A stretch of 64,000 nt of DNA, from assembly GCA_038231155.1 (NCBI GenBank), contig JBBRLY010000012.1, forward strand, positions 64,645 to 128,644. The letters run 5' to 3'. Source of the DNA: Candidatus Saccharimonadales bacterium. Its GTDB lineage: Bacteria; Patescibacteriota; Saccharimonadia; Saccharimonadales; JANWIN01. The notes beneath the pieces were generated by a model. That model was not told the origin of the DNA, ran no database searches, and saw only the letters and a program-made list of their open reading frames with translations. Below, piece by piece: positions 17,089 through 36,672 of this stretch (within the stretch, counting starts at the first letter, position 1; each line of letters opens with the position of its first letter). The translations under genes were made by a program, and so were the position numbers.

Positions 17089-17284
17089 TTTCGATAGTGA
17101 ATGGTTCTCTTTCAAACCCTTAACTCTTGTCTCGCTCTCTGTCGTAGGAACGACATCGAGCTGACCCGACGCACGACGAGAGTCAAGCTGAGGTGGTCGC
17201 ACCCAGGGGTCGTGCTCTCGGGCTGCACTCCCCAGCGTCGTCGCGCCGACCCGCGACTGTCTGACTGGCCTCTCGGAACCTCCC

Positions 17285-17668
17285 TTATCGGTCGGTGCAT
17301 TCGAGTGCGGCGAGCGCCTCGTTCGTGCTCGAAACTCGCATCACCAAGGGGTGGTAGAGAAACATCGTTGGGTCTGCGCCAGAGACGATCGCGATCACGT
17401 GCTTGCCGAGGGCCAAGGCAGCCCCGAGCTCAACGAACAGCCCGACGCCTCTCGGATGGACCATCACGATGACAACGTCCGCGTCACGGACGCCTGCGAG
17501 TTCGAGCTCCGCAGCGCTCTGCGATGCTCCCGCGTTCTTGTCGTATGGGCGAAGGTGCTCTATCGAAGTCCAGTCGAATGTCACATTGTGGCCGCGTTGT
17601 GACAAGACCGCTATCAGATCTTTGACGTCCTCGTGGTCACCGACCTTGCCGGAGACGAAAACGCGCAT
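17285..17668 (-). CDS. nucleoside 2-deoxyribosyltransferase-like protein (high-GC island cargo)
   Basis: 127 aa, MRVFVSG...DADVVIVMV...GVGLFVELGAALALGKHVIAIV resembles the Rossmann-like NDT fold pattern with conserved E; high GC3 in this frame. Confidence 0.45.
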   Translation of the reverse strand: MRVFVSGKVGDHEDVKDLIAVLSQRGHNVTFDWTSIEHLRPYDKNAGASQSAAELELAGVRDADVVIVMVHPRGVGLFVELGAALALGKHVIAIVSGADPTMFLYHPLVMRVSSTNEALAALECTDR

Positions 17669-18019
17669 CGAGCTACGGAGCGACCCCGGGATTTTTACAT
17701 CAGTCGCGAGCGGTATGCAATCGGGTGCGAGTGGTTCGTGTTGCGCCTGCTACTGCGAAGGGCGTCGACTCGCTGGCGAAGAGTGGTAGTGGCTCGTCGC
17801 TAGATGTAGACACTTCGGCGGGCCACACCTGTTCCTACGATTGAACGTCGCCGCGTGGGGGCGATCAGAATTACGTGGCCATCCCAAGACGAGCGGCCGT
17901 TCCCGACGCGATCACGATTCACGAGGTGACATTCCTGGCCTTTGCGATCGCTATGAGCGCCGCCAGCTTGCGGACGCATGACCATTCCTGGGGTCGACCC
18001 GGTTCGCCGGACATCGTTG

Positions 18020-18237
18020 CTATGCCGCGTGAGCGACTCTCCTGTTGCAGATCCTGGCTTCGTATTCGGCGGGTGTCAGGTAGTCGAGCGTGAAGTGGAG
18101 ACGCCGCCGCGCGTTTGAAAGAGCGCGATCCACCCGGATGAGCGACCGGTACCTCAGGATGGCGCCGCAACAGGGGAAACATCCGCACCGGCACCAACGA
18201 GCGGAGAGCCTGCGAGAGCTTTCAAACCCGTCAGACT
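18020..18237 (-). pseudogene. C-terminal remnant of an rve (DDE integrase-core) transposase, IS3-like
   Basis: Minus-strand frame reads ...YRSLIRVDRALSNARRRLHFTLDYLTPAEYEA..stop, the typical ...LDYLTPAE(Y/F)E transposase C-terminus; no upstream catalytic region present. Confidence 0.4.
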
Positions 18238-18338
18238 GTAAGCATTTGTAAAAATTAGAATATTTCCACCTCTGTAGATTTAAAAAGTAATTCTAATTAC
18301 CACCTGTTATCAATGTTATAAAAGTTACAAATGCTTAC
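18238..18338. repeat. 101-bp AT-rich palindromic mini-element (MITE-like) inside the high-GC island
   Basis: Perfect 14-bp terminal inverted repeat GTAAGCATTTGTAA / TTACAAATGCTTAC, inner inverted repeat ATTAGAAT / ATTCTAAT; 26 of 101 nt are G+C. Confidence 0.6.
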
Positions 18339-19036
18339 ACCCCTGGCGACCCGACAGAAATGATGCGCGAACAAGAAGTGCGACTCGAGCCGCAAGAACT
18401 CCCGGGTCAGGTCCCGTTCGCGGCCGATCACCTTCTTCACCGCGATCGTCGTGTTGTCGTAACTCGTCCGGGTCGGGACCCCGCCGAAGAACGAGAACGC
18501 GGCGACATGCGCGGCTTGGAATGTCTCGGTGCATTCGCGCGGATATGCCGACAGGTGCCACGCATCCGAAAACGGCAACGTCATCACCGCGAACGCCGCC
18601 TTGGTCCGTTCGCCGGCGATCACGACCGTTGCTTCACCGAAATCGAACTGCGCTTCGCCCGGCGGATGGCTGAGCGGCACGAAAACTTCTCTGCCATGCC
18701 GCTTCGTTTGCGCGACGTAACGGCGGACCTGAACCTCGCTGCCCCGATAGTCGTGCTCGTCACGCAGCCGGTGGAAGATCCGCCGAGCCGTGTGTCGCTG
18801 CTTCGGAGGCGCGTCCCGATCCGCCGCCAACATCTCGTCGATCAACCCGACAAACGGCCCCAGCATGGGCTGCGCCCGCGGCCCCCGGAACCGATATCCC
18901 GGCGGCTCCGCATGCTCGAGAATCTTCTCCAGCGTCTGCCAGCCCATCTTGTACTCACGACAGATCTCGCGCTTCGAGACCCCTCGACGAGCACCCTGCG
19001 CCGGATCTCTGACCACAGCTCCATATCGGTACGCAC
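18339..19036 (-). pseudogene. istA: IS21-family transposase IstA, frameshifted and 3'-truncated
   Basis: MELWSEIRRRVLVEG (HTH start) in one frame, continues as SKREICREYKMGWQTLEKIL...PLSHPPGEAQFDFGEA...LPFSDAW...GGVPTRTSYDNTTIAV in another; homology stops abruptly at the AT-rich element. Confidence 0.7.
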
Positions 19037-19129
19037 CCTTCTCCGTCCTGCTCGCCGGACTCTCCCGAGGAAGCCTCAAGGAGCCCAAACCAGCCGACGG
19101 GGACCGTCAGGTGCTGCCGTTTTCGACGA

Positions 19130-19660
19130 TCACAAACCCATCACAGGTGCTGTCGTTTTCGAAGAGCGTTTACAGGCGTGCCGCCGCTGTCGGTAGCGGG
19201 CATCGGCAGGCACTCCGGATTTCCGTATTGGATCCGGTGCCTCCGACATAGGATCGATGCCCTTATCAGCCAGCCTGCGCTGGCTCTTAGCGACTCGCCA
19301 TCTCGTGAGGCGTCCGTTCGCCCGACTGCGTGGAAAGAGAGTAGCGCCGACGGTCAGTGCGGCAAGCATATTGATCGCAGAGGCAGTCAGCAGCGACGCG
19401 TGATATAGCCCATGATCTTTTGGGAGTAGAACAGCGAGTGCAAAGCCTGCCCATACGGCGGCGGCGGCGCCGGCGGCGCACAGGAACCGGATGCCGCGAG
19501 TGAGATACGCGCCGAGATCCGAGAGGCTCGTGGTCAGAAACGCGGTGATGGCAGCGGGCGCTGCGACCAGGAGTGCACCGACCGCTGCAGCCACTTGCCT
19601 GAGGCCCTCGCCCGGCGCCAAATCAAGGGCGTAAATGGGATTTTCGTAGGAAGTAGCCAC
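19130..19660 (-). CDS. hypothetical membrane protein of high-GC origin, C-terminus probably disrupted
   Basis: Ala/Leu-rich hydrophobic helices and G/C-ending codons in this frame; the last ~50 aa are basic and run into IS-flanking sequence. Confidence 0.35.
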   Translation of the reverse strand: MATSYENPIYALDLAPGEGLRQVAAAVGALLVAAPAAITAFLTTSLSDLGAYLTRGIRFLCAAGAAAAVWAGFALAVLLPKDHGLYHASLLTASAINMLAALTVGATLFPRSRANGRLTRWRVAKSQRRLADKGIDPMSEAPDPIRKSGVPADARYRQRRHACKRSSKTTAPVMGL

Positions 19661-20086
19661 ACACGATTGCTAGTAATAAGGCGCCTCCGGCTAGCGCGAC
19701 GACGGCGCTCGTTCGCGCTAACTGCAGCTCGGCTATCGCCGTCCGTACGGTAAGCCCGATAGATGATTTGCTTTATCATGGAGAGTTTTCAGAGAGACCA
19801 CCAAGAGATCGTTGGATCTTGAAGCTCGGGTCGTTGAAACACGGAAGCCTCTGGGCACCCGTAGGTCCCGCGAGCGCTTGTCTGATTTGCCCGCTTAGGA
19901 GATAATTGCTTGGGCGGTCAGGTGTCTGACCTGCGGCGATGGGTTCGAAAGAGATCCCAGGCAGCCCGCCAATTGCCGGGACGAATTCCATTAATGTGCC
20001 AGCTTCAAAATACAACACTGAGGCAGGTTAGCGATCAGATGTTTAGAATTCACAACAGTCTGTTATAATTGGCCAGGCTAAAACCA

Positions 20087-20354: not shown

Positions 20355-20939
20355 ATGGCAAGTGAGCAACCCGGGCAGGTTATCAATCCTGATGCAGTGC
20401 ACCCTCAGTCTAGTTGGCAATTTCATGCCGAAGAGTCATCAGATCCCGGCGCTTCACCCCAAGTACCTAGCAGTGATGTCGAAACCGTAAGTTGGTCGGC
20501 ATCTGAATTTATCGCCCATGATAAATCTGCTGGTTGGTACAGTTTATTAGTCCTTGGCACAATTGTGTTAGCGGCCTTGGTTTATCTTTTGAGCCATGGT
20601 GATAAGGTATCGACTGGAGTAGTCATAATTGTACTAGCTGTTTTTGGGATAATGGCAGCTCGTAAACCACGAGAGCTAAATTATAGTGTTGATGATAAAG
20701 GCTTACATATTGGTGATAAATTTTATAACTACAGTACCTTTAGATCATTTTCTATAGTTCAGCAAGATTCTGTGGAGTCAATCTGGTTAATGCCACTAAA
20801 ACGCTTCTTACCAATTATTACTATTTATTTTGACAGCCATGATGGTCAAAAAATTACCGATACTCTTAGCCAATTTTTACCAGTTGAAAATCGTCAACCT
20901 GATTTGGTTGATAAACTTATGCACCGACTGCGGTTTTAG
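20355..20939 (+). CDS. hypothetical membrane protein (two central TM helices)
   Basis: ORF with good length; WYSLLVLGTIVLAALVYLL and VVIIVLAVFGIMAA helices; no motif recognised. Confidence 0.5.
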   Translation: MASEQPGQVINPDAVHPQSSWQFHAEESSDPGASPQVPSSDVETVSWSASEFIAHDKSAGWYSLLVLGTIVLAALVYLLSHGDKVSTGVVIIVLAVFGIMAARKPRELNYSVDDKGLHIGDKFYNYSTFRSFSIVQQDSVESIWLMPLKRFLPIITIYFDSHDGQKITDTLSQFLPVENRQPDLVDKLMHRLRF

Positions 20940-21086
20940 TAAACTAAGAAATCCTCTAAATTGTAAGAAACTAATTAATTCAAGAGCTGTCTATTAAAAA
21001 CTTTATAACTTTAAATTTAGTAAACCCAAACTAGCACTACAGGTGTTTTGGTTAACAGATTAATTATGCTAAACTTCCCCTGTTAT

Positions 21087-21164
21087 GCACCCGTAGCTCA
21101 GCTGGATTAGAGTGCATCCTTGCGGAGGATGAGGTCACAGGTTCGAATCCTGTCGGGTGTACCA
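21087..21164 (+). tRNA. tRNA-Arg (anticodon GCG), CCA encoded; 3' end overlapped by recombinase ORF
   Basis: Cloverleaf folded by hand: acceptor GCACCCG/CGGGTGT (G1-U72 wobble), anticodon stem CATCC/GGATG with loop TTGCGGA, T-loop GGTTCGAATCC. Confidence 0.85.
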
Positions 21165-22748
21165 AGATTTCAAAATAGCATCTTCGGATGCTTTTTGTAT
21201 CTTATGGGGCTCGGTTCTAACCTTTTCAATTTCGTTTCTTAGAGCTTGAACCTCATTTTTTATAGGAATAAGCCATTCATTAGGGGTGATAACTAGCTTT
21301 TTGTCTATTAATATAGGGTTCTGACCAATGGCTAAAAGTATTTCTACTTTGTCATTTACATTACCAGTAACGAACTTTTCGTTAGCATTTGTTAGTGTTT
21401 CGAGTGTTTTTCCAACAATTTCGTACCAATTCTTTACTCTATCCGCTGTTTTGGATTGTTCTTTCTGTCGTTCTTTAAGCTCTTTTGCCAACTTCGTGCT
21501 TCTTTGCTGATAAACCTCTGGTGTAATGGCTCCAAACTCAGCCATGTCTAAAAGGTTATCCAATTTCTTCTGTACAGCAGCAATTGATTCGAATTGCATT
21601 GACTGAACTTCATCTCGCTCACTTATTTCTTCCTTTGCCATTTCGTTCAAGGCTTTTATGCCCCATTCATAAAGCTTAGGAGTAACCTCGTAGCAATCGA
21701 GTAATTCATTTACCTGTGCAAACAGATCTGCCTCCCGAACCGAGCTTCTTTGTGAGCAAGGCTTTTTGAGTGTGCAGTGATAGTAGGTATGATAGTTTAT
21801 TTCACCGTTAACTAACTTCTTCTTTTTAAGCTCTGCAGTTATCATGCAGCCACACTCTCCACACCTAATAAATCCCCTCAGATCAAACTGTCTTCGTGAT
21901 GCTAATCTAGGGCATCCACGCTTACCTAATATGTCTTGGACTCTGTCATACTCGTCCAGGCTAATCATCGCAGGGAAACTGGCTTTAGCATATACGCCAG
22001 GTATCTCAGGATCTGGTATTTGCCCTGCATATCTAATATTCCTAAACATACCGTAAAGAGAAGAACGATTTATTGGCCCACCACCAACTTTGGTTCGTCT
22101 AACTGTCGTATAGCCCCAGTCTTCGTTCATGATTCGTCTTATTTCTGGGACTGTATATTTACCACTAAGCAGTAGATCAAAAGCATCTCTTACTAGATTG
22201 GATCTAATTGGATCTTTAACGACTTCCTTTTTGCTCCTCTTAGTAACATTAAGATAACCCTCTGGAGCAACACCCGAAAGCTCACCGTTTCGTAGCTTAT
22301 GGTAAATACCTCGTTTAACATTTTTACGGAGTTCAAGTATATATTGATTACCTATACTTGCTTCGACACTGAAAACAACTGCATTATCATCAGGTAGGTG
22401 CTCTTTATCATGCGCTTGGATACTCTTTATCTTTTCATCTTGAAGCATTTGCTGCAAAATACCGCTTTCAGTAGGGTTTCGAGACAGTCTATTAATATGC
22501 CAGCACAAAATTCCATCTGCTTCACCTAGCTCAAGCATTTTTAACATTTGAGTAAACCCATCTCTCAGAAAAGGTGTTTTAGCAGATTTAGAATCCTCTA
22601 GCTCTTTTACTACATTGATCTTCAGTCGCATAGCCAGCTTCCTTAAAACATCTAGTTGATCAGGGATTGATTGCACTTGCTTATCTCTATCTTCAGATGA
22701 CTTTCGTGCATATAAGATGTAGCGTAAATTGTTTCTATCTTGTTTCAT
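21135..22748 (-). CDS. large serine recombinase (phage-integrase-type)
   Basis: N-terminal resolvase domain YILYARKSSEDRDKQ ... RLSRN, recombinase domain, zinc-ribbon CGECGCMITAE...YYHC, C-terminal coiled coil; final 10 codons (WYTRQDSNL) are the reverse complement of the tRNA-Arg 3' end. Confidence 0.9.
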   Translation of the reverse strand: MKQDRNNLRYILYARKSSEDRDKQVQSIPDQLDVLRKLAMRLKINVVKELEDSKSAKTPFLRDGFTQMLKMLELGEADGILCWHINRLSRNPTESGILQQMLQDEKIKSIQAHDKEHLPDDNAVVFSVEASIGNQYILELRKNVKRGIYHKLRNGELSGVAPEGYLNVTKRSKKEVVKDPIRSNLVRDAFDLLLSGKYTVPEIRRIMNEDWGYTTVRRTKVGGGPINRSSLYGMFRNIRYAGQIPDPEIPGVYAKASFPAMISLDEYDRVQDILGKRGCPRLASRRQFDLRGFIRCGECGCMITAELKKKKLVNGEINYHTYYHCTLKKPCSQRSSVREADLFAQVNELLDCYEVTPKLYEWGIKALNEMAKEEISERDEVQSMQFESIAAVQKKLDNLLDMAEFGAITPEVYQQRSTKLAKELKERQKEQSKTADRVKNWYEIVGKTLETLTNANEKFVTGNVNDKVEILLAIGQNPILIDKKLVITPNEWLIPIKNEVQALRNEIEKVRTEPHKIQKASEDAILKSWYTRQDSNL

Positions 22749-22779
22749 TTTAGCTCCTAACTAAAAAGGACGACCGGTT

Positions 22780-22880
22780 GTTCACACAGTCTGTAGCGAA
22801 ACGCAACATTCTGATACCAGTCGCCCATTTTAGGGCCCTGAAACGAAGATACGTTTCGCATGGTAACAGATCGTGTGAAC
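22780..22880. repeat. 101-nt imperfect palindrome immediately upstream of the recombinase gene
   Basis: Left arm GTTCACACAGTCTGTAGCGAAACG, right arm CGTTTCGCATGGTAACAGATCGTGTGAAC; blocks GTTCACAC/GTGTGAAC and GCGAAACG/CGTTTCGC are perfect. Confidence 0.6.
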
Positions 22881-22916
22881 GATTACCATTGTACATTAAG
22901 TATTGTTAAAGTTACA

Positions 22917-24278
22917 TCAATCTTTAAAGAGATTGTTGGCTATTTCTATGATTTCCTTGGCCTCATCTGCACTGGTAGCCCCCTGGGCCATACCTATATT
23001 GTTTTTTTCGGGGAACCATTGAGGGAATATGTGCCAGCTTCGTTTATCACCCTCTGATGGCTTTTGCTGCATTATCATGCCACTGTTCTCTAATTGGGGT
23101 AGTATCTGCCTACGCAACTGTTCATCGTTTAACATGGTGTGCTCTATTTTTAAGTAGTAACGTGCAACATCATGCCTGGTAATGCCTACTTTTCCATCTT
23201 CCATGTCGCCTGAGTAGTCCTCATCTTTCTTTTCATTAAATGCTGGTAGAATATATTTTTTGTAAAAGTTCATCAGTACAGGTGGTAGATTTAGGTCTTG
23301 GCTCTCAATAAAGTAACCCCATAATTCGAAGGCTTGATCAATGTCATCTTCAGATGCTTCATACGAATGACTGCTTTTCTTTCTTGACCATACATTTAGT
23401 AGGGCGATCGCTTTTATAAGCTTCATTAAATGAGCCATATCTCGCATATGTCGGGGCTTAACACTACTTAGCTTTTTATAGAACCGTTTTTCAACAGCTT
23501 CAGAATCAGTAATGATAATGTCATCAACTTCTTCATCTCTTATCGCTAAAATCCGTTCTTTCAGCGCTATTCTTTTTGAGTCCACATTTATAGCACTTTT
23601 AAAAGCCACTTCATTTGCTCCTCGTTGTGCTTGAAGATGCACACCTTCTTTTAACTTGCTTTCAGTAACTTCTGGACTAAGTAGGATAGCCCGGGTGGCT
23701 TCTTGCTCATCGAGTCTCATGCCGGCAGAGCAAAACACAGTTGCAGGAAATCCCTGCATTATTATCAATTGAGCTCTATGTTCACCCTTTTGGCCTTTAT
23801 TGGTAATTCTATACTTGGTTTCCCACTGATCGTGCGAAAGTACCGATCTTAGTTTGGCTTGAAGCGTTGGGTCTGGCTGCTCGTAAAAGATCAGTATCTT
23901 TCTAGATAATGAAACTATCTTCGCCTTTCTGTTTTTATCTATTACTCCCTCACCGTGAAAGAATGATGTGGGACTTGCTCCGCTGAGTTCGATCTTATCT
24001 TCTTTAGGGAATAGCTTAGCAACCTCAGTAGTTAGGTAGGATTTGCCCGACGAACTTGGTGCATTGAAACTCACGTTAATTTGGTTGCTGTGGGTATAAG
24101 CCGAGAGCATACATAGAAAAGTTACTAGCTTATTTTCATAGTCATGCTTAATTGTTAGCGACAAAACATCTGCAAGTTCATTTAGTGACATTTCTTTAAA
24201 AGGTGGGGCTTTTGGCTGCTTGCGCAGCCTTTCAAGCTTTTCCAGTTTGCCATTCAATGTTGAGTTAATTTCTTGCAT
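22917..24278 (-). CDS. P-loop NTPase, putative replication/primase-helicase-type protein of the element
   Basis: Walker A-like FNAPSSSGKSYLTTEV about 75 aa in; size and position next to the recombinase fit SF3/D5-type element replication proteins; not verified. Confidence 0.4.
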   Translation of the reverse strand: MQEINSTLNGKLEKLERLRKQPKAPPFKEMSLNELADVLSLTIKHDYENKLVTFLCMLSAYTHSNQINVSFNAPSSSGKSYLTTEVAKLFPKEDKIELSGASPTSFFHGEGVIDKNRKAKIVSLSRKILIFYEQPDPTLQAKLRSVLSHDQWETKYRITNKGQKGEHRAQLIIMQGFPATVFCSAGMRLDEQEATRAILLSPEVTESKLKEGVHLQAQRGANEVAFKSAINVDSKRIALKERILAIRDEEVDDIIITDSEAVEKRFYKKLSSVKPRHMRDMAHLMKLIKAIALLNVWSRKKSSHSYEASEDDIDQAFELWGYFIESQDLNLPPVLMNFYKKYILPAFNEKKDEDYSGDMEDGKVGITRHDVARYYLKIEHTMLNDEQLRRQILPQLENSGMIMQQKPSEGDKRSWHIFPQWFPEKNNIGMAQGATSADEAKEIIEIANNLFKD

Positions 24279-24501
24279 AGCTAGCCTCGCAGTCTGGGCA
24301 GTTACAATTTGGCCACGATATGTTAACTGTTAGTCTAGAAACTTCGTTCGATAATCGTTCAGCTTCTCGACCGTTTAGTAGGCCGCTCCCATATTGGTAG
24401 TTTATGTACGCACACATTGCACTTGCTGCTTTCTGTAGCATCTTTGGACTAGTGATTTGGTGGTGTAGTTTTCTTGGTGCTGTTTGGGTTAATGTTGCCA
24501 T
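24265..24501 (-). CDS. hypothetical small protein
   Basis: ORF only; an internal Met (about 24441) would remove the overlap with the upstream ORF. Confidence 0.3.
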   Translation of the reverse strand: MATLTQTAPRKLHHQITSPKMLQKAASAMCAYINYQYGSGLLNGREAERLSNEVSRLTVNISWPNCNCPDCEASYARN

Positions 24502-24715
24502 TGTTATTCTCCTTAAAAATTAATTGTTTATTACGTTTCTTACTTACGATAAAACGCATAATGGCAACGCCAGCTTCTTGAGCTTGTTCGGTTGTAAGGC
24601 ACAAACCGAACTCAGCTTTTAGCAAGCCCTGAAGTTCATTGATACGTTCATCACTTAGTTTCATTTGCAACCTCTCCAGTGGTTCCGTATCGACCCCAAT
24701 TCTATTTGTCGACAA
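24449..24715 (-). CDS. hypothetical small protein
   Basis: ORF only, co-directional with neighbours. Confidence 0.35.
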   Translation of the reverse strand: MSTNRIGVDTEPLERLQMKLSDERINELQGLLKAEFGLCLTTEQAQEAGVAIMRFIVSKKRNKQLIFKENNNGNINPNSTKKTTPPNH

Positions 24716-24827
24716 CGGAATTAATTGAATTGGTAGCTTAATGTTCGCAATAAAATAATAATAAATACGCTAAGCACGATTTATTCTTGCCTTAGAGGTG
24801 TTATTCTGGGATTATTCTTGATTTGTT

Positions 24828-25601
24828 CTAATTTAGAGCGGCGACTTTTATGGTATCTATTTCTGATTCGGTGAGATGCACTGTCTGTGCAACTCTTATA
24901 GAACCTGGAGTAGCATGAATAAATACTCTTAGAGCTCCATTTTTTATGTCAAAGTGAGAGTGTTGAATGGCTGCTTTAATGTTGCTAAGGCCTTTCATAC
25001 CTGGCTTGGTTTTCAATAAGCTAGAGGACACATCTCGACCAGGCGAATGATTCAAGCAGTAATTAATAATATCGAAAGCTCTGCCACCTCGCATCGAGCT
25101 TAACAGGTAAACGCTATTGCCGACAGTGACTTGGGGCCTAGAGATGTTTTCAAAACTCAGCACGGCTAAGTGATTTTTGGTTTCGAGCTCTGCTGAAAAC
25201 ATGTTTGGGTCTCCGCCTTCAGCCAGCACTCTCAGAATGTTGGGCTTTAAGTCGTTCCGTGGGAAGAGTTTGCTTGCTCTTTTCGGATCTCGTTCATAGG
25301 TTGCGTATTCTTCGTATTTCATCAGCACGTCATAAAAGGTACTGAGCAGTTTTACGTGATAGGTATCGTCTTCTGTATTGGTAAATAGATTTTTATCAGC
25401 GTCAGGCCACTTGATGATCTCGATACATCGTTTCCCCTCGATTTTCCAGAGCATTGCCATTATGTCTAGGGTGTCTGCTCTAGAAACCCCGGAACGGCTA
25501 AGCCGTAACATCGAAACAACTATTGGTTCATCGGGCCCAACTTGTTTTGACTTCTCGTCAATAAGTTCTAAAACCGTATAAACCTTTTCGACATCTGTCA
25601 T
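24828..25601 (-). CDS. hypothetical protein co-transcribed with XRE regulator
   Basis: 257-aa ORF starting 8 nt after the HTH gene stop; no motif recognised. Confidence 0.5.
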   Translation of the reverse strand: MTDVEKVYTVLELIDEKSKQVGPDEPIVVSMLRLSRSGVSRADTLDIMAMLWKIEGKRCIEIIKWPDADKNLFTNTEDDTYHVKLLSTFYDVLMKYEEYATYERDPKRASKLFPRNDLKPNILRVLAEGGDPNMFSAELETKNHLAVLSFENISRPQVTVGNSVYLLSSMRGGRAFDIINYCLNHSPGRDVSSSLLKTKPGMKGLSNIKAAIQHSHFDIKNGALRVFIHATPGSIRVAQTVHLTESEIDTIKVAALN

Positions 25602-25609
25602 TTGGCTAC

Positions 25610-25840
25610 CTAAAGACGTTTAAATATATCTTCGACTCTGGTATCAAGAGCAGAAGCAATTTTATAAATAGTTGTGACTGTTGGTCTCCTTTTGCCAGTC
25701 TCGATGTTAGCGAGTGCAACCCGATCTATATCAGCTTCCGCAGCAAGTTTTTCTTGTGTCATGCCCTTTTGTTTACGAATTGAGGCAATACGCTTGGCTA
25801 AAGCATCGAGAAATTGTTTTTCTTTGTAATCATTTGACAT
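25610..25840 (-). CDS. XRE-family helix-turn-helix transcriptional regulator
   Basis: GMTQEKLAAEADIDRVALANIETGKRRPTVTTIYKIASAL is a canonical Cro/C1 HTH. Confidence 0.85.
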   Translation of the reverse strand: MSNDYKEKQFLDALAKRIASIRKQKGMTQEKLAAEADIDRVALANIETGKRRPTVTTIYKIASALDTRVEDIFKRL

Positions 25841-25944
25841 CTACTCCTTTGGTATGTATGCCCATGAGCAAAGCCCATAATCATTTGATTACATTTGCTA
25901 ACTCAGCTAACATCAAAGTAGTCAATTGATTACAGACTACATAT

Positions 25945-26412
25945 ATGAAAATTCAGCAACTAGACACTCAACAAGTAGAAATAGTAGGTCGCAACCTACT
26001 TACTTCTTTATTGACAGCTGATGGGATCGAAGTCGCAGAACCATTAAGAGATAAAGGGGTTGATTTAATAGCTTTCAGTGATCCAACAAGTAAAAAATTC
26101 AAAGCAATACCGATACAGTTGAAAGCTTCTAGTGCATCCAGTTTTAGTATTGATAAGAAGTACGAAAAATTTCCAAACCTACAAATGGCATATGTTTGGC
26201 ATGTAAGTGAACCCCTGAAAGCAAGTGTATATATCATGACTTACGCTAATGCCGTAGGGATTGCCAAAACACAAAAGTATACAGAATCCGAATCATGGAA
26301 ATCTAATGGATATTATGTGACAAATAAACCTAGCAGAGAACTCATTAAGCTACTCGATAAGTATAGATACCAGTCTGGAAGATTACTTGGAGATATAAAC
26401 ACATTACAATAA
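25945..26412 (+). CDS. hypothetical protein, possible PD-(D/E)xK nuclease fold
   Basis: E..(GVDLIAF)..IQLK spacing resembles the D...(E/Q)xK motif; weak, sequence-pattern only. Confidence 0.3.
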   Translation: MKIQQLDTQQVEIVGRNLLTSLLTADGIEVAEPLRDKGVDLIAFSDPTSKKFKAIPIQLKASSASSFSIDKKYEKFPNLQMAYVWHVSEPLKASVYIMTYANAVGIAKTQKYTESESWKSNGYYVTNKPSRELIKLLDKYRYQSGRLLGDINTLQ

Positions 26413-26419
26413 GCAATAC

Positions 26420-26941
26420 ATGGTCAATTATTCAAAAAAATACAAACACTTCGATGCTCTAGTTGCTGATTACAAACCTATGAAGTTTAAATACTTTGGC
26501 TATATGCATGGGGAGCATTTTACGAATCCGTTATTTCAAAAGCCATTTATTGCTATCCGTAAGCAGTTAAAGTCAATGTTTGGCTTAGAGCTGACTTACT
26601 TTGACCTACGCACCTCGTTAACCACAGAGCAACGTAAAATGGGAGACATGTTATTCCTTACACATTGTGGCAAGAATCATGCCGAGGGTGCCGAGAATGT
26701 CTCGAGGGTTGAATTAATACGCTACTTTGTTATCAAAATGCACTATCTACCAGAGTTACTGCATATAAAATCAGAGATGTACACCAAACATGGCAAACCT
26801 ATATCGAAACTACCCGACTATGTAAGTATGTACCTACTGAGGTGGCATTACTTGCTGAATGTTGATCCAAAATTTGTAGAGCTGGTACACGGTATGGATG
26901 CTAACGAAGCATCTTTAAGAATTAAAGGTCTTGTCTCTTAA
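26420..26941 (+). CDS. hypothetical protein, partner of the upstream ORF
   Basis: Starts 8 nt after the upstream stop; no motif recognised. Confidence 0.4.
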   Translation: MVNYSKKYKHFDALVADYKPMKFKYFGYMHGEHFTNPLFQKPFIAIRKQLKSMFGLELTYFDLRTSLTTEQRKMGDMLFLTHCGKNHAEGAENVSRVELIRYFVIKMHYLPELLHIKSEMYTKHGKPISKLPDYVSMYLLRWHYLLNVDPKFVELVHGMDANEASLRIKGLVS

Positions 26942-27266
26942 GGCCATTACAAGACAGGCCACCGTAGATTGGTGTCGGTAAAGGTCTATCATTGCTAGTG
27001 ATATCAACTTTTGCTCCGTAGCCATATTTACCTATCAAATCAATTGCTCTAGTGTCTCCATTAATAGCTTTTGTTAGCAGCACCATGATAATTGCTTTTA
27101 TTGGAGCGCCTTTAATAATTGTTCCGTCGCTAAGCTTTTGCTCAAAGGCTTCATCTTCCATTAATTCTTGAATCCATCTTGAAAGATGCTTTGTACCTTT
27201 TGGCTTACCATTAGGATTTCCAGACTGCCCAGCTTGCCACGATTTAAGATTCTGTTCGTTTGCCAT
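26922..27266 (-). CDS. hypothetical protein with GQSGNPNGKPKG motif (DUF5681-like, common on phages/plasmids)
   Basis: N-terminal SGNPNG(K/R)PKG pattern recalled from mobile-element proteins. Confidence 0.4.
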   Translation of the reverse strand: MANEQNLKSWQAGQSGNPNGKPKGTKHLSRWIQELMEDEAFEQKLSDGTIIKGAPIKAIIMVLLTKAINGDTRAIDLIGKYGYGAKVDITSNDRPLPTPIYGGLSCNGLKRQDL

Positions 27267-27362
27267 ATTTACTCACTGTATTTTCACTGTAATGTGTCAG
27301 TAGTTGAAAGTACACTTTCACTCTAGAAAATAAGGTGTAAAAATGCTATTGTTCCATTAAGC

Positions 27363-27707
27363 ATGGACCTTGCAATATACTTCAAAAACAAGAGCCTAAA
27401 AAAAATTCCAAAAGTTGGGATTCATTTCGAGCAAAAGACTGCACATAAGGCATTAAGAACAATCGCAAGTGAGTTTCACAGGCTATTCGAACCAGACGGA
27501 ACACCATTAAGAATCGAAATATCTACAATCAAGCCAAGACAGGTATTAGTAGTAGGTAATCTAAAGGAGCTTATGAAAGGTGAAGATATAAATCTTGAGA
27601 AGTCATTGAGTTTCGAGCTCTATCGTAAATCTTTGAACGACGTAGAGATAATAACCTTTGATGAACTATATGAACGTGCGAAGTTTATTGTCGATGGCAC
27701 AGATTGA
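27363..27707 (+). CDS. hypothetical protein
   Basis: ORF only. Confidence 0.35.
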   Translation: MDLAIYFKNKSLKKIPKVGIHFEQKTAHKALRTIASEFHRLFEPDGTPLRIEISTIKPRQVLVVGNLKELMKGEDINLEKSLSFELYRKSLNDVEIITFDELYERAKFIVDGTD

Positions 27708-27795
27708 TACACTGCACCAAAAAAGATATATAGGCAAAGGTGGGGGTATAGCTTAGTTTTATAGAGTATTTAGACTAAAATTAGATAGGAATAGC

Positions 27796-27826
27796 GTTCT
27801 GACTTCAGTAAGGATGCTGTACCAAG
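27796..27826 (+). repeat. short cassette-junction motif, copy A (GTTCTGACTT..ATGCTGTACCAAG)
   Basis: Aligned by eye with copies at 28345, 29175, 29685 and with the 3' third of the 79-bp repeats. Confidence 0.6.
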
Positions 27827-27863
27827 CAAAACGTTATTAGTACATCAGTGATACTATAAATTT

Positions 27864-28334
27864 ATGAAGAAAAATAAAAAAAGAGGTAGAGTAGTTCGGC
27901 TCATATTAATATTCATTATTATTATTTTCGCAACAGGTTGGTCAGTTTATCAATCAAACCAAAAAAGTAAAGGCAACAACTCTATTAATTCTGCAGCTTT
28001 AATGACATTATCATACAGCGGTGGTAATTGTGCGGGACCTTGTAACAGCCTTGTTTATAATCTCTACGGCGACGGTAGATTCGAGGGTCATAAAAAGCTT
28101 AGTGGTTCTGAAGTGTCTGAGCTAAAGGAGATTATCAAAACCACCGATTTCTTAAATTATACTGCTAGCCCCAATCCACATTGTGAATCATTTGTAGATG
28201 GCTCAGATCAAGTTCTACTTTTCCCTCAAAAATATGGCAATAAAACATTTACAACATGTATGCTAAATATATCAAGCAATGACACAGCTTTCAGCTTTAT
28301 AAATAAATTGATCGAAACACATTCCGGACAATAA
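27864..28334 (+). CDS. membrane-anchored/secreted hypothetical protein (cassette ORF)
   Basis: Basic N-terminus plus LILIFIIIIFATGW helix, Cys-containing ectodomain; flanked by motif copies A and B. Confidence 0.5.
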   Translation: MKKNKKRGRVVRLILIFIIIIFATGWSVYQSNQKSKGNNSINSAALMTLSYSGGNCAGPCNSLVYNLYGDGRFEGHKKLSGSEVSELKEIIKTTDFLNYTASPNPHCESFVDGSDQVLLFPQKYGNKTFTTCMLNISSNDTAFSFINKLIETHSGQ

Positions 28335-28344
28335 GTTAATAAAT

Positions 28345-28376
28345 AAAGTTCTAAACTTGTATACAATGCTGTACCA
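28345..28376 (+). repeat. short cassette-junction motif, copy B
   Basis: AAAGTTCTAAACTTGTATACAATGCTGTACCA, 11 nt after the upstream stop codon. Confidence 0.6.
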
Positions 28377-28390
28377 GTTTACTTATGGGT

Positions 28391-28870
28391 TTAATGGTGC
28401 ACTAAAGCTCTTATCCACGTGCGTGCAATCGGATTTTCAGTTAGATTTATCGGTGAGCGATGACGTTCTCTTCTAAATTTTACTAGCTCACCCGGACTAG
28501 GCCGTTCACGGCCTTGAAACTCGGTTAAAAAACAATTTGCAGTTATATATTTGCTGACACGGTCAGATATATCTCCATCTTTATGCCAGCGTGATGAACC
28601 AGTCCGTTGTGACTCATTTGGTAATATCAATCCATTTTCCACCGCAAATTCTATAAACCTGATATGTCTATTAGCTGTTTCAAGGATTGGGTATAGCATT
28701 GGTTCAATAGCATCCATCACAAGTCGCTGGGTAAAACTATGGTTACCGTCTGGCCACCGCAAGCTGGCACCATTACGAATAATATTTCCTGAGATAGGTA
28801 ACGCTGCTTGTATATCAACAAACATCTGATCAGGAATTTCTGCAATTACTTCAAGGGGCATCACACGCAT
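28391..28870 (-). CDS. hypothetical protein, possible 2OG-Fe(II) oxygenase-like (HxD ... H)
   Basis: RWHKDGD and later HRSP could be a facial-triad pattern; weak. Confidence 0.3.
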   Translation of the reverse strand: MRVMPLEVIAEIPDQMFVDIQAALPISGNIIRNGASLRWPDGNHSFTQRLVMDAIEPMLYPILETANRHIRFIEFAVENGLILPNESQRTGSSRWHKDGDISDRVSKYITANCFLTEFQGRERPSPGELVKFRRERHRSPINLTENPIARTWIRALVHH

Positions 28871-28911
28871 TGTGATACTATATAATTTTTAGTATTTTAT
28901 GCAAAACAGAT

Positions 28912-28990
28912 ATTCAGTCTGTTATCTAATTTGCGCTTAAGTCAGTCTATGAAGTAATTTCATTCTAACTTGGTCTAGTGTGCCGTACCA
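28912..28990 (+). repeat. 79-bp dispersed repeat, copy R1
   Basis: 6 mismatches in 79 nt versus R2; internal hairpin TAAGTCAG-19 nt-CTAACTTG region; ends in GTGCCGTACCA. Confidence 0.85.
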
Positions 28991-29014
28991 TTTTGCTTAT
29001 GCTAAGATGTTTTT

Positions 29015-29176
29015 ATGAAGAAACTGCGAACTAATTTAATTATTATCAGTCTTGTTATTCTGCTACTAGTTTTTGGTTTAATAATTTACCTAAGACCACA
29101 TAAAAAATGTGTTAAATGGTATACCTTGGGAGCCAGGTCAGACGGACCCAGGCAATGCATTAAGTACGCAAACTAA
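29015..29176 (+). CDS. small hydrophobic peptide (53 aa), not in ORF track
   Basis: ATG 24 nt after R1; MKKLRTNLIIISLVILLLVFGLIIYL TM helix then basic Cys-containing tail; no obvious SD. Confidence 0.3.
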   Translation: MKKLRTNLIIISLVILLLVFGLIIYLRPHKKCVKWYTLGARSDGPRQCIKYAN

Positions 29177-29206
29177 AGTTCTAACTTCGTTAATGATGCT
29201 GTACCA
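29175..29206 (+). repeat. short cassette-junction motif, copy D
   Basis: AAAGTTCTAACTTCGTTAATGATGCTGTACCA overlapping the stop of the 53-aa ORF. Confidence 0.6.
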
Positions 29207-29266
29207 CACTTCAAAAATTTATAAGTCTATTAGACAAAAAAACAGTAAACTTTGCCTCTTCAAATT

Positions 29267-29345
29267 ATTCAATCTGTTATCTAACTTGCACTTAAGTTAG
29301 TCTAAGAAGTAATTTCATTCTGACTTGGTCTAGTGTGCCGTACCA
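29267..29345 (+). repeat. 79-bp dispersed repeat, copy R2
   Basis: About 92% identical to R1 and 90% to R3 by hand alignment; shares an extra AAATTATT upstream with R3. Confidence 0.85.
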
Positions 29346-29371
29346 AGCATAAGCATGTTATTATTGTTAAT

Positions 29372-29554
29372 ATGATAAAACAAAAGAATCTCGCCTATAT
29401 AATATTAGCCATTGGTATAGTTCTAGTTATTGTAGGTATCTTTTTCGGATTTTTTAAACATGATAATAGCAACTCTCATGGAACTTCTCTCTTATTTATA
29501 GCTCTTGCACTTCTTTGCTTTGCATTCTACACAAAACAAGTACGTAAGAAATAA
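29372..29554 (+). CDS. small two-TM membrane peptide (60 aa)
   Basis: ATG 26 nt after R2; the track ORF starts earlier (29333, GTG inside the repeat), which is less likely. Confidence 0.35.
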   Translation: MIKQKNLAYIILAIGIVLVIVGIFFGFFKHDNSNSHGTSLLFIALALLCFAFYTKQVRKK

Positions 29555-29684
29555 ATACTGTGTAGTCACTGATATTATTTAAAGATTGATGTATAAAATT
29601 CCATATTTAATACTTTACAATTAGAAATAATATTTTATGAAATGACCATCTATCTCTTATTTACATCCACATAAAGCTATTAGT

Positions 29685-29716
29685 AAAGTCCTAACTTCGT
29701 ACAGAATGCCGTACCA
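29685..29716 (+). repeat. short cassette-junction motif, copy F
   Basis: AAAGTCCTAACTTCGTACAGAATGCCGTACCA. Confidence 0.6.
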
Positions 29717-29726
29717 TATTATATTA

Positions 29727-30062
29727 TTAAGTTTCAACAAATAGATTGCGAAGTGTTGTAAGTACCCTATCTAACTTTTGAGTGTTCAATTCCCCATACA
29801 TTTTGCTAACTATTGATGTTTCAGCTGTGAAAAGTTTATCAGGTCGTACGTAACTTTTAACCGGAAGACTACCTTCGATAAAATCCGGTTTGGTTAGTTC
29901 AATCGCCATAGTACTCGAATATGGCTTTGAAGTAATCTGGCAGAGGATCAAGTTGTCGAAATCGACGATGGCTACGATTAGAGCCGGGCGATATTTCTGA
30001 GCTTTTAAATCTGAAAACGGAAAAGCACTAGTTACAACTTGACCTACCGTAAACTGGCCCAC
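29727..30062 (-). CDS. mazF: MazF/PemK-family endoribonuclease toxin
   Basis: GQVVTSAFPFSDLKAQKYRPALIVA ... CQITSK pattern; overlaps the antitoxin gene by 19 nt. Confidence 0.85.
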   Translation of the reverse strand: MGQFTVGQVVTSAFPFSDLKAQKYRPALIVAIVDFDNLILCQITSKPYSSTMAIELTKPDFIEGSLPVKSYVRPDKLFTAETSIVSKMYGELNTQKLDRVLTTLRNLFVET

Positions 30063-30280
30063 GCTTTATCTTCCTCGGGTCTAAGCCAATCTCTAGCCAG
30101 TAGTCTTTCAGACAAAAGTGCTGTTTCAGAAATTTTCTGTGCAGGTTTACCAGCAGTTATACGAATCTCGCCATTTTTAGCGATAATTGTTACGTCTTTA
30201 CCTAACCCGCTCTCCTTTAATAGTGGCTTAGGTATGCGCACTCCTTTAGAGTTTCCAATACTGATAATAGTTGTATTCAT
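30044..30280 (-). CDS. mazE: MazE/AbrB-family antitoxin
   Basis: IISIGNSKGVRIPKPLLKESGL SpoVT/AbrB swapped-hairpin motif upstream of mazF. Confidence 0.8.
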   Translation of the reverse strand: MNTTIISIGNSKGVRIPKPLLKESGLGKDVTIIAKNGEIRITAGKPAQKISETALLSERLLARDWLRPEEDKAWASLR

Positions 30281-30354
30281 TGTGATAACATTGTAGCTAC
30301 AATTTCAAGAACTGTCAATCGCCAAATAATACCTTATTGCATCTTTGATAAATT

Positions 30355-30433
30355 ATTGAATCTGTTATCTAATTTGCGCTTAAGTCAGTCTAAGAAGTAA
30401 TTTCATTCTGACTTAGTCTAGTGTGTTGTACTA
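30355..30433 (+). repeat. 79-bp dispersed repeat, copy R3 (3' end degenerate: GTGTTGTACTA)
   Basis: 8 mismatches in 79 nt versus R2. Confidence 0.8.
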
Positions 30434-30465
30434 TGCTGTATATACTTTTCCAATATACTGAAATT

Positions 30466-30660
30466 CTATAAATCTTTATAAGCACTTTTTCGGTGTCGGA
30501 CTCTAATAACAAAGATTAATAATTGGTTTTTGTAAATCCTGTAAATAATTCGATAAGTACCTTATCTAATACGATATACATTATTTGAACCTTTAATTTT
30601 ATTAGCCTCATACGGCACAGGGTTTCTGTAAAGACAATTTATATTATTTACAAACTTATC
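30466..30660 (-). pseudogene. RelE/ParE-family toxin remnant (5'-truncated, in-frame stop)
   Basis: Minus-strand frame reads ..LYRNPVPYEANKIKGSNNVYRIR-stop-GTYRIIYRIYKNQLLIFVIRVRHRKSAYKDL-stop, matching the YRIRxGxYRIIY...HRKxxY RelE/ParE signature; no antitoxin gene or N-terminus left. Confidence 0.6.
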
Positions 30661-30668
30661 CCTATTCC

Positions 30669-32129
30669 TTAAGTATGTATTATGACTGGCGTGCCAATTG
30701 GTGCCCAACTATACATCCACTCCCCATCACCCACTTGAATACCAACACAACCGTGCGAACTGTTAATATTGCCAAAATAACTTAATGGCCGCCAATAATT
30801 GCCATGAATAGCATAGTCTTTATAAAAGTAATTTACCCAGGGTACTTTTGGTACAAAGTAGCTACTGCCATCGGTGTTGGATCCATGCATGTCTTGTTGC
30901 ACAAACTTAGAGTAAATGGCGTATTGGCCAGTAACGGTTGGGGTTTTAGGTGCACCAGCAGATATTAGGAAAGTGCGCACCAGGTTACTTTGCTCATAGG
31001 CATACATGCGTTTATTAGTTAAATCGACCTCTATCCATTTGGGGTAATCTTTAGCAGCAACAGTTTTAAAAGAAGCGTATTGAATAGCTAAAGTCTCAGA
31101 TATATTTTTACCTTGCAGCAAACTTTGGGTTACATCTGACGCTATGGCGACTTGATTGGTGATAGCCGTTCCATTAACGCCTGGCACGATAATCTTGGCA
31201 CTACCATCAGATTGTGTGACTTCGACTTGCGCTTTGGGGGGATGGACTTGGTTACTAGTTATTTGATTGATATACGACAGTACTTTACCGCTGTTGACGG
31301 TAATATCAATTTTACGTCCATTATTTACCGTAGATATTTCTACCCAGTTAGCAATATCTGTCGGTGAGGCCGTGACTTTTTTACTTGTAAAATCAAAACT
31401 GATCTTTTGACTTAGGATGTTTTGCAACTGTGTTTGATAAGGTGCTAACTGGGAAGACAAAATTGGCGGTTTGGTGTCTAAAGTCTCCATTTTTAATGGT
31501 TGGCTTTGTAAGCGATTTACCGCTGTTAATATGGTTGAATAGGGGCTAGTTAGCCCATAGTGTTTGCCTGAAACGGCATCAGTCAGTTGAACCTTACCTT
31601 TAACTATCGATAAATTAGCGTCTTTGGCTGGTTGAATAATTTGGGTAGCTTGAGTTGCAATGAATTGATATAAAGTGGAGTTATTCACTTTTAGAACCAA
31701 ATTTGCAGTTATAGGATGCCACCACTGTATACGCTGTGAAAACTGGTGTTGTTGAGTCCTAATATTATTAACTGAAGCAACGGAATCAACCCAAATTCCC
31801 ATGGTACCAGGGCTAAAACTTTTAGTGGAGTTATCTGGATAAGTCAAATGGAGCCGATATTTAGCAACTTGATCTTGAATGATTTGGCCTAAGACCGTAT
31901 CAGATTGGCGAGTAGTTATTATGCTATTGTCTAAACGGACTTTTGACAGAAAGCTAAAGGCTAATATCCACCCTAATGCAATAACTAACAATATCGGCAA
32001 CATAGCTATGTCTAGCCAACGCCTTAACCAATGTCGCTTAATATGGGCTTCGGTTTCTACAACTTCTTTAATATGACCGTGTTCAAGTTCTAGGTCCGTA
32101 TTTATCAAGCGACTGAGCCAGTTTGGCAT
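30669..32129 (-). CDS. L,D-transpeptidase (YkuD domain) with N-terminal TM anchor and long ectodomain
   Basis: C-terminal ...YAIHGN ... SSHGCVGI catalytic His/Cys motif of YkuD; N-terminal helix ILLVIALGWILAFSF. Confidence 0.85.
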   Translation of the reverse strand: MPNWLSRLINTDLELEHGHIKEVVETEAHIKRHWLRRWLDIAMLPILLVIALGWILAFSFLSKVRLDNSIITTRQSDTVLGQIIQDQVAKYRLHLTYPDNSTKSFSPGTMGIWVDSVASVNNIRTQQHQFSQRIQWWHPITANLVLKVNNSTLYQFIATQATQIIQPAKDANLSIVKGKVQLTDAVSGKHYGLTSPYSTILTAVNRLQSQPLKMETLDTKPPILSSQLAPYQTQLQNILSQKISFDFTSKKVTASPTDIANWVEISTVNNGRKIDITVNSGKVLSYINQITSNQVHPPKAQVEVTQSDGSAKIIVPGVNGTAITNQVAIASDVTQSLLQGKNISETLAIQYASFKTVAAKDYPKWIEVDLTNKRMYAYEQSNLVRTFLISAGAPKTPTVTGQYAIYSKFVQQDMHGSNTDGSSYFVPKVPWVNYFYKDYAIHGNYWRPLSYFGNINSSHGCVGIQVGDGEWMYSWAPIGTPVIIHT

Positions 32130-32221
32130 TTTTTAACTACCCTTTAACTTCCCAAATTATTGTATCCAAGTATAATCCAAGAACTGAATATCCATTAGTA
32201 GTTTAACTCAGCTCAATATAT

Positions 32222-32253: not shown

Positions 32254-32339
32254 TTGAAACCTTCCCTATACTGTGATCAATATCATTTAATTATGGCTTG
32301 ATTTTTAGCATTGCTTTTATATAATTAATTGCATGATTT

Positions 32340-36659: not shown

Positions 36660-36672
36660 ATAATGTTTAGCA

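Follow-up and report, generated by a model that had tools for sequence, protein, structure and literature searches.

A small serine-integrase element likely inserted directly after the CCA of a tRNA-Arg gene and its tRNA-associated relatives in Saccharibacteria

Introduction

Large DNA is inserted mainly with serine integrases as tools, whereas tRNA genes are regarded as the territory of tyrosine integrases. In the staphylococcal cassette chromosome mec (SCCmec), a serine-recombinase element occupies the extreme 3′ end of rlmH/orfX and leaves that gene functional, and composite islands are found together with recombinase-less cassettes that are bounded by core direct repeats. Here we describe a locus of a Candidatus Saccharimonadales bacterium (assembly GCA_038231155.1, contig JBBRLY010000012.1) in which the gene of a large serine recombinase (LSR) overlaps the 3′ end of a tRNA-Arg gene with anticodon GCG. 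The locus lies in a stretch of 64,000 nucleotides that was analysed as a whole and is called the window; positions are those of the window, and loci used for comparison carry handles of the form L204.

Serine integrases have been predicted at t(m)RNA genes in 14 of 297 serine-integrase (S-Int) islands by Mageeney et al. 2020 (PMC7192596), who state that such t(m)RNA use "has not been reported previously" and call for it to be proved by experiment. Those predictions come without a family, an anatomy of the attachment (att) sites or a Saccharibacteria context (PMC7192596). Our full-text literature search, whose coverage was incomplete so that an earlier description is possible, yielded no account of a serine recombinase at a tRNA gene in either Saccharibacteria or Patescibacteria. 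Site-specific integration by serine integrases is known; what is unusual here is the tRNA-end target class, an att core inside the integrase gene (int), an element arm (the P arm) that mimics a tRNA, and arrays of cassettes.

Results

The recombinase gene and the tRNA end

Three features of the window carry the argument:

21087-21164, plus strand: tRNA-Arg with anticodon GCG and an encoded CCA, recognised by ARAGORN and Rfam and by its cloverleaf fold
21135-22748, minus strand: gene of the LSR, or integrase (int), 537 aa, assigned by Pfam and phrog_95
21165-27824: int element, 6.66 kb, from the CCA to the first P-arm site

We consider it likely, with good confidence, that the 6.66-kb segment is an integrative element inserted precisely after the CCA of a native tRNA-Arg(GCG), and that the targeting of tRNA genes is a property of the whole integrase family. 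The recombinase open reading frame (ORF) and the tRNA gene overlap by 30 nt on opposite strands. The 537-aa protein ends in ...KSWYTRQDSNL followed by TGA; the TGG codon of W529 (21162-21164) is the complement of the tRNA CCA, and the antisense strand of the tRNA supplies the last eight codons (YTRQDSNL) and the stop, which is located at 21135-21137 within the tRNA (nt 49-51). The initial annotation had described the last ten recombinase codons as antisense to the tRNA 3′ end, and reading of the sequence bears this out, with the overlap at 21135-21164 and no in-frame stop in the int ORF upstream of the tRNA.

A scan that took one genome per GTDB species gave 79 loci, nearly all from metagenome-assembled genomes of Saccharibacteria or Saccharimonadia. 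An antisense tRNA is present at the int 3′ end in 47 of these loci, and in all 47 the element begins right after the CCA in the same register; the overlap of int and tRNA is therefore not due to chance. The tRNA-targeting serine-integrase element proposed in the initial annotation is upheld by these loci and extends to the whole family. The 3′ ends of 14 different tRNA genes by anticodon (nine amino acids) are occupied, among them Arg(gcg, tcg, tct), Tyr, Trp, Gly(tcc, gcc, ccc), Gln(ctg, ttg), Leu(caa) and Asn. Integrases are 90-94% identical at Arg-gcg, Arg-tcg and Tyr-gta, and 83% identical at Gly-tcc. The target in L013 (11657-11847) is a tRNA that contains a group I intron (Rfam, 73.6 bits) and was overlooked by ARAGORN, and the family therefore uses intron-containing tRNA genes too; a transfer-messenger RNA was considered for this segment and rejected on the Rfam result. 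A more distant LSR (L182, 34% identity) likewise overlaps a tRNA-Arg(GCG). The comparisons point to a large and apparently undescribed family of tRNA-end serine integrases in Saccharibacteria.

The window LSR carries the Pfam domains Resolvase, Recombinase and Zn_ribbon_recom, with PF00239 matched at 1.9e-16 over residues 11-156, PF07508 at 23.2 bits (cutoff 21.1) and PF13408 at 29.5 bits (cutoff 25.3), and it is matched by the phrog_95 integrase at 2e-62. In an alignment of 34 sequences, R15, S17, the four cysteines C296, C299, C325 and C331, and W529 are invariant, and the conserved protein stops at W529. The region 340-480 is, by length alone, compatible with a coiled-coil insertion. Scores for the NCBIfam models CcrA, CcrB and CcrC are 38-49 bits against cutoffs of 700-900, the score for XisF is also far under its cutoff, and the sole match in the PDB is to the catalytic domain, at 8e-7. 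The protein is a bona fide but divergent LSR. It is the sole recombinase found, with no match to Phage_integrase (tyrosine recombinase) among the scanned ORFs of 20355-35430.

Homologs of the LSR number more than 1,300. In the best 120 of these, the conserved part ends in ...QKASEEAxxxxW and is followed by a variable tail, which is antisense tRNA in 69 (x4-[DE]SN, the T-loop), four residues or fewer in 28, x6-VRT (the P arm) in six and outside the classification pattern in 17. Viral contigs gave only relatives at 34% identity or less when scanned with the alignment, and no match when scanned with the single LSR sequence; elements of the LSR family are not in IMG/VR.

Attachment sites and element ends

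The sites in the window are as follows:

21158-21164, plus strand: core common to attL and attR, TGTACCA, tRNA positions 70-76 (identity block of tRNA and P arm)
Last ~20-25 bp of tRNA-Arg(GCG), ending at 21164, plus strand: B arm of attL (comparison)
21165-21200, plus strand: P′ arm, inside the int 3′ coding region (junction comparison)
21213-21222, plus strand: GGTTCTAACC motif, which encodes VRT of the integrase (P′ consensus, junction listing)
27796-27824, plus strand: attR of the int element, with P arm GTTCTGACTTCAGTAAGGATGCTGTACCA, ending in TGTACCA like the tRNA (site pattern)

The far end of the element is marked by a distal 29-nt site, GTTCTAACTTCG-N-...CCA, located 1.5-11 kb downstream on the tRNA strand. 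A P-arm site was scored where this motif and CCA were accompanied by at least 5 nt identical to the tRNA end of the same locus. There are 25 such sites in 15 loci, all of them on the element side and the tRNA strand, and none in a control of 1.26 Mb composed of the opposite strand and the upstream side. The identity between P arm and tRNA end extends over 6 nt at 11 sites, 7 nt at five, 8 nt at five and 9 nt at four, and is never shorter in a convincing site. The ends of the sites co-vary with the target: they read CTGCACCA where a tRNA-Tyr is occupied, CCCCTGCCA for tRNA-Trp and GTACCA for tRNA-Arg. When the P′ arm was sought in reverse complement as the distal arm, matches were at chance level only (13-15 of 22); the distal arm is a different conserved motif.

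Several loci show the element ends in an informative context. In L022 the distal site directly precedes the first base of tRNA-Thr, so that the 11.3-kb element lies exactly between two tRNA genes. The distal site of L017 is followed by ATGAAAGA-hairpin-TTTTTTCAT and then by tRNA-Ser(cga), which is the layout of the empty tRNA-Arg(GCG) sites (L159) and of Arg-Ser neighbours (L103, L133). The contig L204 (9,750 nt) encodes an integrase (P0006) that is 65% identical to that of the window; it has a terminal overlap of 30 nt, the sole case among about 215 loci, and its ORF for a fusion of reverse transcriptase and trypsin is whole only once the contig ends are joined. L204 is therefore read as a 9,720-bp circle. 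Its attP is intact, GTTCTAACCTCGGATAAGATGCTGTACCA|ATTATTCAAAAGTGACCC..., and continues into int, and by manual count 23 of the 29 positions of its P arm agree with the window attR. The other homologs with a VRT tail represent junctions of this kind too. The P arm beside int in L200 and L201 is that of another element, which has an LSR of its own, and two elements thus stand in tandem; the P arm beside int is of the Gln type in L216 and of the Tyr/Gly type in L217. For the Arg type, all four sites could be reconstructed: attB from L159, L103 and L133, attP from L204, and attL with attR from the window and L017.

On the side next to the tRNA, the P′ arm forms a hairpin (21177-21192), seen in the fold, that is followed by the T-run TTTTTG and is the sole terminator-like site found in 20900-23000. 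Its minus strand encodes the conserved QKASE(D/E)A motif of the integrase (QKASEDA in the window). A hairpin with T-run is kept at the same position in 48 junctions, where the consensus on the element side is tT.TaGACg.A.aGCCTCTtcggaGgCtTTTTgtATCTGTTGaGgcatgGTTCTAACC, and almost every member of the family has the GGTTCTAACC motif at a distance of ~50 nt from the CCA. By its layout, the hairpin with its T-run is a candidate terminator that can end the tRNA transcript.

Position of the crossover

In 11 of 15 loci (manual count), attL and the proximal attR disagree at the two bases that follow the CCA, and in 11 sites upstream identity ends at position 71; the crossover is therefore placed within N71-A76. 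In the reconstructed attP, composed of the proximal P arm and P′, the best dyad axis is at 71|72, where 4.87 of 9 positions are complementary over distances of 6-14, compared with ~2.2 for most other axes and with background for axes inside the CCA. A crossover in the 71|72 register would explain why the shared block has a minimum of 6 nt, namely 2 nt of crossover and the 4 nt (discriminator and CCA) that restore the tRNA.

Three observations count against that register. The dyad signal at 71|72 stems mainly from TTCTAGACG-type elements, the inner arms of the window and L204 show 3 of 9 complementary positions in a by-hand comparison, and the dinucleotides GC at 71-72 (Tyr and Gly types) and TA at 72-73 (Arg type) would be palindromic. 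Palindromic crossover dinucleotides are normally avoided by serine integrases. It is possible, although we think it the less likely solution, that this element and its family exchange strands at CC or CA, which all tRNA ends have in their CCA; the tRNA would in that case consist entirely of host DNA, and one crossover dinucleotide would serve for every tRNA. Neither CC nor CA is palindromic, and no target lacks them; their use would explain both the switching between tRNAs and the invariant TGG, whereas the match of P-arm positions 71-73 to the target tRNA (25 of 25) is left unexplained, as is the peak of dyad symmetry at 71|72 with only background inside the CCA. The crossover is thus only bracketed to N71-A76, with the exact register left between 71-73 and CC/CA.

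For either register, T72 falls within the block identical in attP and attB, and the T-arm and positions 66-70 are host DNA. Because the junction sits at the CCA end and the element ends share only 6-9 nt with the tRNA (N71-A76), the T-arm and most of the acceptor strand are host-derived, and so is the tail of the int ORF.

An array of cassettes behind the element

Beyond attR, the window contains further sites of the same type:

27825-29716, plus strand: row of five cassettes without int, each closed by a P-arm site (last positions 28376, 28990, 29206, 29345 and 29716)
29717-32253, plus strand: two further segments with decayed P-arm sites (30405-30433 and 32225-32253; repeat families D1 and D2)

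The int element is followed by at least five cassettes, and the ends of the first five make, together with attR, six intact P-arm sites in the window. The five cassettes contain small secreted or membrane ORFs and a 159-aa ORF. The two further segments, whose membership of the array is uncertain, encode a MazF/MazE-like pair (Pfam PemK and MazE) and an L,D-transpeptidase (YkuD). A 93-nt repeat occurs three times (28911-29003, 29266-29358 and 30354-30446; 81-86% identical to the first copy), and each copy ends in a P-arm site, so that three cassettes share ~50 nt beyond the site. It is at this repeat that the organism's Logan contigs are interrupted. The loci L002, L006, L009, L017, L031 and L013 likewise have two or three sites each, int-less cassettes are present at the tRNA in L102, and L200 and L201 contain tandem int elements. 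The inner cassette of L017 starts with a P′-like hairpin segment, and this segment recurs (49 nt, 88% identical) right after the tRNA-Arg of L102, which has no int and a different cargo. In their arrangement, the units look like non-autonomous two-armed cassettes that were stacked by repeated insertion at one tRNA.

The 29-nt sites of 27796-29716 might instead be promoters or regulatory repeats of small genes, and the array an ordinary gene cluster. Several copies are located just upstream of small plus-strand ORFs, and three copies share the longer 93-nt repeat, but two copies precede the 3′ ends of minus-strand genes. Regulatory repeats would also leave unaccounted for that the last 6-9 nt of the sites vary with the occupied tRNA, that in the circular L204 and at tandem junctions int directly adjoins a site of this type, and that none was found in the 1.26 Mb of control sequence. 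We therefore regard this explanation as improbable and retain the stacked cassettes.

The tRNA-Arg(GCG) as a native gene

The Rfam score of the tRNA-Arg(GCG) is 63.7 bits, the highest among the four tRNAs of the window. Its acceptor stem, GCACCCG / CGGGTGT, sets G1 opposite T72, and its anticodon loop is TTGCGGA; the initial annotation had noted both the G1-T72 opposition and the GCG anticodon, and the sequence and ARAGORN agree with it. It had gone on to propose that the 3′ part of the tRNA is element-derived, that the G1-U72 pair may be an integration scar and that the GCG anticodon is rare. None of these three proposals survived comparison.

Metagenome matches provided at least 120 stretches with a tRNA-Arg(GCG), of which 113 copies were readable. 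Among the matches listed, T72 is present in 103 of the 113 copies and C72 in 10, the sequence downstream is unrelated (mostly plain terminators or a tRNA-Ser gene), and a relative of the LSR is encoded at only two of the scanned loci, nearly all of the sites being unoccupied. Copies that lack the element thus have the same G1-U72 pair with unrelated sequence behind it, and because most of the 103 are empty, the pair is taken as native. The anticodon GCG was found in L011, L014, L017, L018, L021 and L059 as well as in the metagenome stretches, and the Arg tRNAs of the 60 loci scanned included none with anticodon ACG. In this lineage, G1·U72 is the normal state of tRNA-Arg(GCG), and GCG appears to be the usual tRNA-Arg anticodon.

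It follows that a crossover deep in the tRNA, in which the last ~30 nt would be the element's copy and G1·U72 the scar of an imperfect copy, is very improbable. It could draw on the overlap of the int ORF with the last 30 nt of the tRNA, and on the greater frequency of T72 in tRNA-Arg genes adjacent to int (12 of 13) than in free ones of the same loci (2 of 6). The latter enrichment is accounted for by target choice, because the core is GTACCA. A deep crossover also conflicts with the 6-9 nt that the element ends and the tRNA share, with T-arms of int-adjacent tRNAs that differ among loci with near-identical element ends, and with a search of the window for a displaced tRNA 3′ fragment (25-mer, up to three mismatches), which returned only the tRNA itself. 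We give almost no credence to a resident, non-mobile host recombinase gene that converges with the tRNA by chance, even though excision was not seen in the strain of the window, since the family is found at 14 different tRNA genes but at only two scanned tRNA-Arg(GCG) loci among the matches listed, has the circular form L204, and has an int that travels with a replication-type nucleoside triphosphatase (NTPase) and variable cargo.

Many empty tRNA-Arg(GCG) sites (L080-L199) show the CCA followed by a long palindromic terminator that ends in TGG. A convergent tRNA gene is often next, and the ACCA of the first tRNA pairs with the downstream TGGT; these palindromes are bidirectional terminators common to convergent tRNAs.

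Contents of the element and its surroundings

Between int and attR the element contains:

22917-24278, minus strand: P-loop NTPase (GKS motif), 453 aa, putative replication protein, conserved beside int
24265-25840, minus strand: small ORFs of 78, 88 and 257 aa and an XRE-type helix-turn-helix (HTH) regulator (25610-25840; HTH family matches)
25945-27707: variable cargo with DUF4365/Mrr-like, 173-aa, DUF5681 and Shedu SduA C-terminal-like ORFs (Pfam)

The NTPase adjoins int in 28 related loci. Many of its homologs are ~730 aa long with Toprim domains (PF13155, PF13662, PF13362), and many have PF27228; because homologs are fused to these primase-type Toprim domains, the 453-aa protein is probably a replication protein. 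The 88-aa ORF is kept in 15 loci, the HTH regulator in three and the 257-aa ORF in two, and no homologs of the cargo ORFs (25945-27707) were found in related loci. Other members of the family are 5-11 kb in size, too small for prophages, and are therefore better termed integrative plasmid-like elements.

Within the cargo, a fragment-sized ORF (27363-27707) matches the Shedu SduA C-terminal domain (1e-10), and the DUF4365/Mrr-like ORF (25945-26412) has weak matches below the Pfam cutoffs; both may be remnants of defence genes. The cargo of L204, which includes the reverse transcriptase-trypsin-like protease fusion, a Macro-domain protein and an S24 (LexA-like) peptidase, is also of defence type in its look.

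The left flank of the locus is syntenic with relatives, and the window genes at 30-39 kb are almost without counterparts in the fetched flanks of those relatives. In several genomes a tRNA-Ser(cga) gene follows tRNA-Arg(GCG) after 10-70 nt in the same orientation; in the window the two are 18 kb apart (21165-39129). The genes at 32.7-39.1 kb (DUF3472, DoxX, VKOR, BacA, cupredoxin) might be old accreted cargo, though no sites flank them. Between the L,D-transpeptidase and DUF3472 genes there is an ORF-free plus-strand stretch (32390-32745) that is richer in guanine plus cytosine (G+C); its plus strand is more stably folded than shuffled sequences (z = -2.7; minus strand, -1.2), and it may be an undescribed structured RNA, although Rfam gave no match on 32150-32800, even at E = 1.

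Upstream of the locus, a 3-kb block at 60% G+C (17100-20010) stands out in this genome of ~39% G+C. It is located between tRNA-Ser(tga) and tRNA-Ser(gct), directly after the former, and carries an ORF for an IS21-family transposase (18297-19088, 1e-55). The same two tRNA genes are only 32-36 nt apart in L014 and L017, and a plasmid search with the block gave no match. The block may be of foreign origin, with a high-GC host bacterium as a conceivable source, or may result from a chimeric assembly. A second high-GC case at a Saccharibacteria tRNA end is provided by L052 (9735-9976), where a G+C-rich insert of ~230 nt separates int from tRNA-Gly(gcc) and has at its flanks 21 nt duplicated from the tRNA 3′ end. 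In L023 (11570-12948), int and its P arm are followed by a second serine recombinase gene in convergent orientation (29% identity), in a locus that gave no tRNA match.

Discussion

By comparison of the loci, the attachment site spans the int 3′ end and reads, on the tRNA strand, as P arm (GTTCTAACTTCG-N9), core and P′ arm, where the core repeats the last 6-9 nt of the target tRNA (N71 N72 N73 CCA). Because the CCA belongs to the core, the last conserved int codon is always TGG (Trp). In the integrated form the int ORF continues into the antisense tRNA up to the first stop, and in the circular form it continues into the P arm instead. In the mechanism that we propose, strand exchange would take place within N71-A76, so that the tRNA would be regenerated unchanged and its terminator replaced by the hairpin of the element.

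The P arm itself suggests how the target might be recognised. In consensus sequences anchored at the CCA, the P arm has a T-loop-like GTTCTAAC at -29..-22 and the tRNA has its T-loop DNA, GTTCGAAT, at -24..-17, a shift of 5 bp. In the sites of the LI/A118 integrase, the outer motifs, which belong to the zinc-ribbon domain, are spaced differently in attP and attB half-sites by this same 5 bp. The likeness suggests an enzyme that reads generic tRNA 3′-end DNA, with the short core setting which tRNAs are compatible. A T-loop is common to all tRNAs, which would explain the near-identical integrases at different tRNAs. Tentatively, and with somewhat less than even confidence, we extend this to a model in which the generic tRNA 3′ end (T-loop region and CCA) serves as a half-site, an attP core of 2-6 nt sets the specificity, elements hop among tRNAs with little change in the enzyme, arrays like those of integrons or SCC grow at tRNA ends of the reduced Saccharibacteria genomes by reuse of occupied sites, and Int has two C-termini, one integrated and one free.

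Several points weigh against these proposals. Inspection of the P′ consensus by eye revealed no mirrored counterpart of the T-loop-like motif, and the inner regions of the B and P arms are dissimilar. An element-side flank longer than 9 kb was available for 32 loci, and in 18 of these the pattern used gave no P-arm site. The circular assembly of L204 could in principle derive from a tandem repeat. Exact-protein look-ups found no empty-site variant of the strain of the window; the matching Logan contigs, which came from two other samples, are fragmented and do not differ from the window. To our knowledge, canonical serine integrases do not target attL or attR, and the origin of the arrays is thus unexplained. 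The support is comparative throughout, and the mechanistic steps are drawn from comparative anatomy.

The att-site grammar of the family is simple and readable, and near-identical enzymes are found at different tRNAs. If confirmed, the family would represent a natural case of easy retargeting of a serine integrase, would supply candidate integration tools for Saccharibacteria and other Patescibacteria, in which genetics is difficult, and would reveal a route by which tiny genomes gain defence, toxin-antitoxin and surface genes at tRNA-linked arrays.

The phage-type serine integrases (Bxb1, phiC31, A118/LI and TP901-1) have the same set of Resolvase, Recombinase and Zn ribbon domains as the window LSR, and likewise have short att sites and int at the edge of the element; the outer P-arm motif is also 5 bp further out than its attB counterpart, as described for the zinc-ribbon-domain motif in the sites of LI. 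They differ from the window family in their targets, which are protein-coding or intergenic sites and not tRNA 3′ ends, and in the identity between attP and attB, about 2 nt as opposed to 6-9 nt. Unlike in the phage-type systems, the attP core of the window family is inside the int ORF, so that integration alters the Int C-terminus, near-identical enzymes use different tRNAs, and arrays suggest the reuse of occupied sites. In sequence, the window LSR is distant from the phage-type integrases, as its single PDB match to a catalytic domain indicates.

The islands that tyrosine integrases form at tRNA genes (P4-like islands, tycheposons) share with the window family the tRNA 3′ end as target, the restored gene, the position of int beside the tRNA, and accretion. 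In those islands, however, the identity typically covers tens of bp and a tRNA fragment is displaced, in contrast to the 6-9 nt and the distal element-specific mimic of the window family. An integron would be expected to have IntI, attI and attC; no tyrosine recombinase was found among the scanned ORFs of 20355-35430, and the sites are 29-nt P arms and not attC hairpins. The composite arrays and int-less cassettes bounded by core repeats in the window, L017, L102 and L200 resemble those of the SCC elements. The window LSR differs from the SCC recombinases in that it is not CcrA, CcrB or CcrC, is a single recombinase, has tRNA-Arg(GCG) rather than rlmH as its target, and belongs to another host phylum. 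With these differences, the SCC composite islands are the closest analogue of the window array that is known to us.

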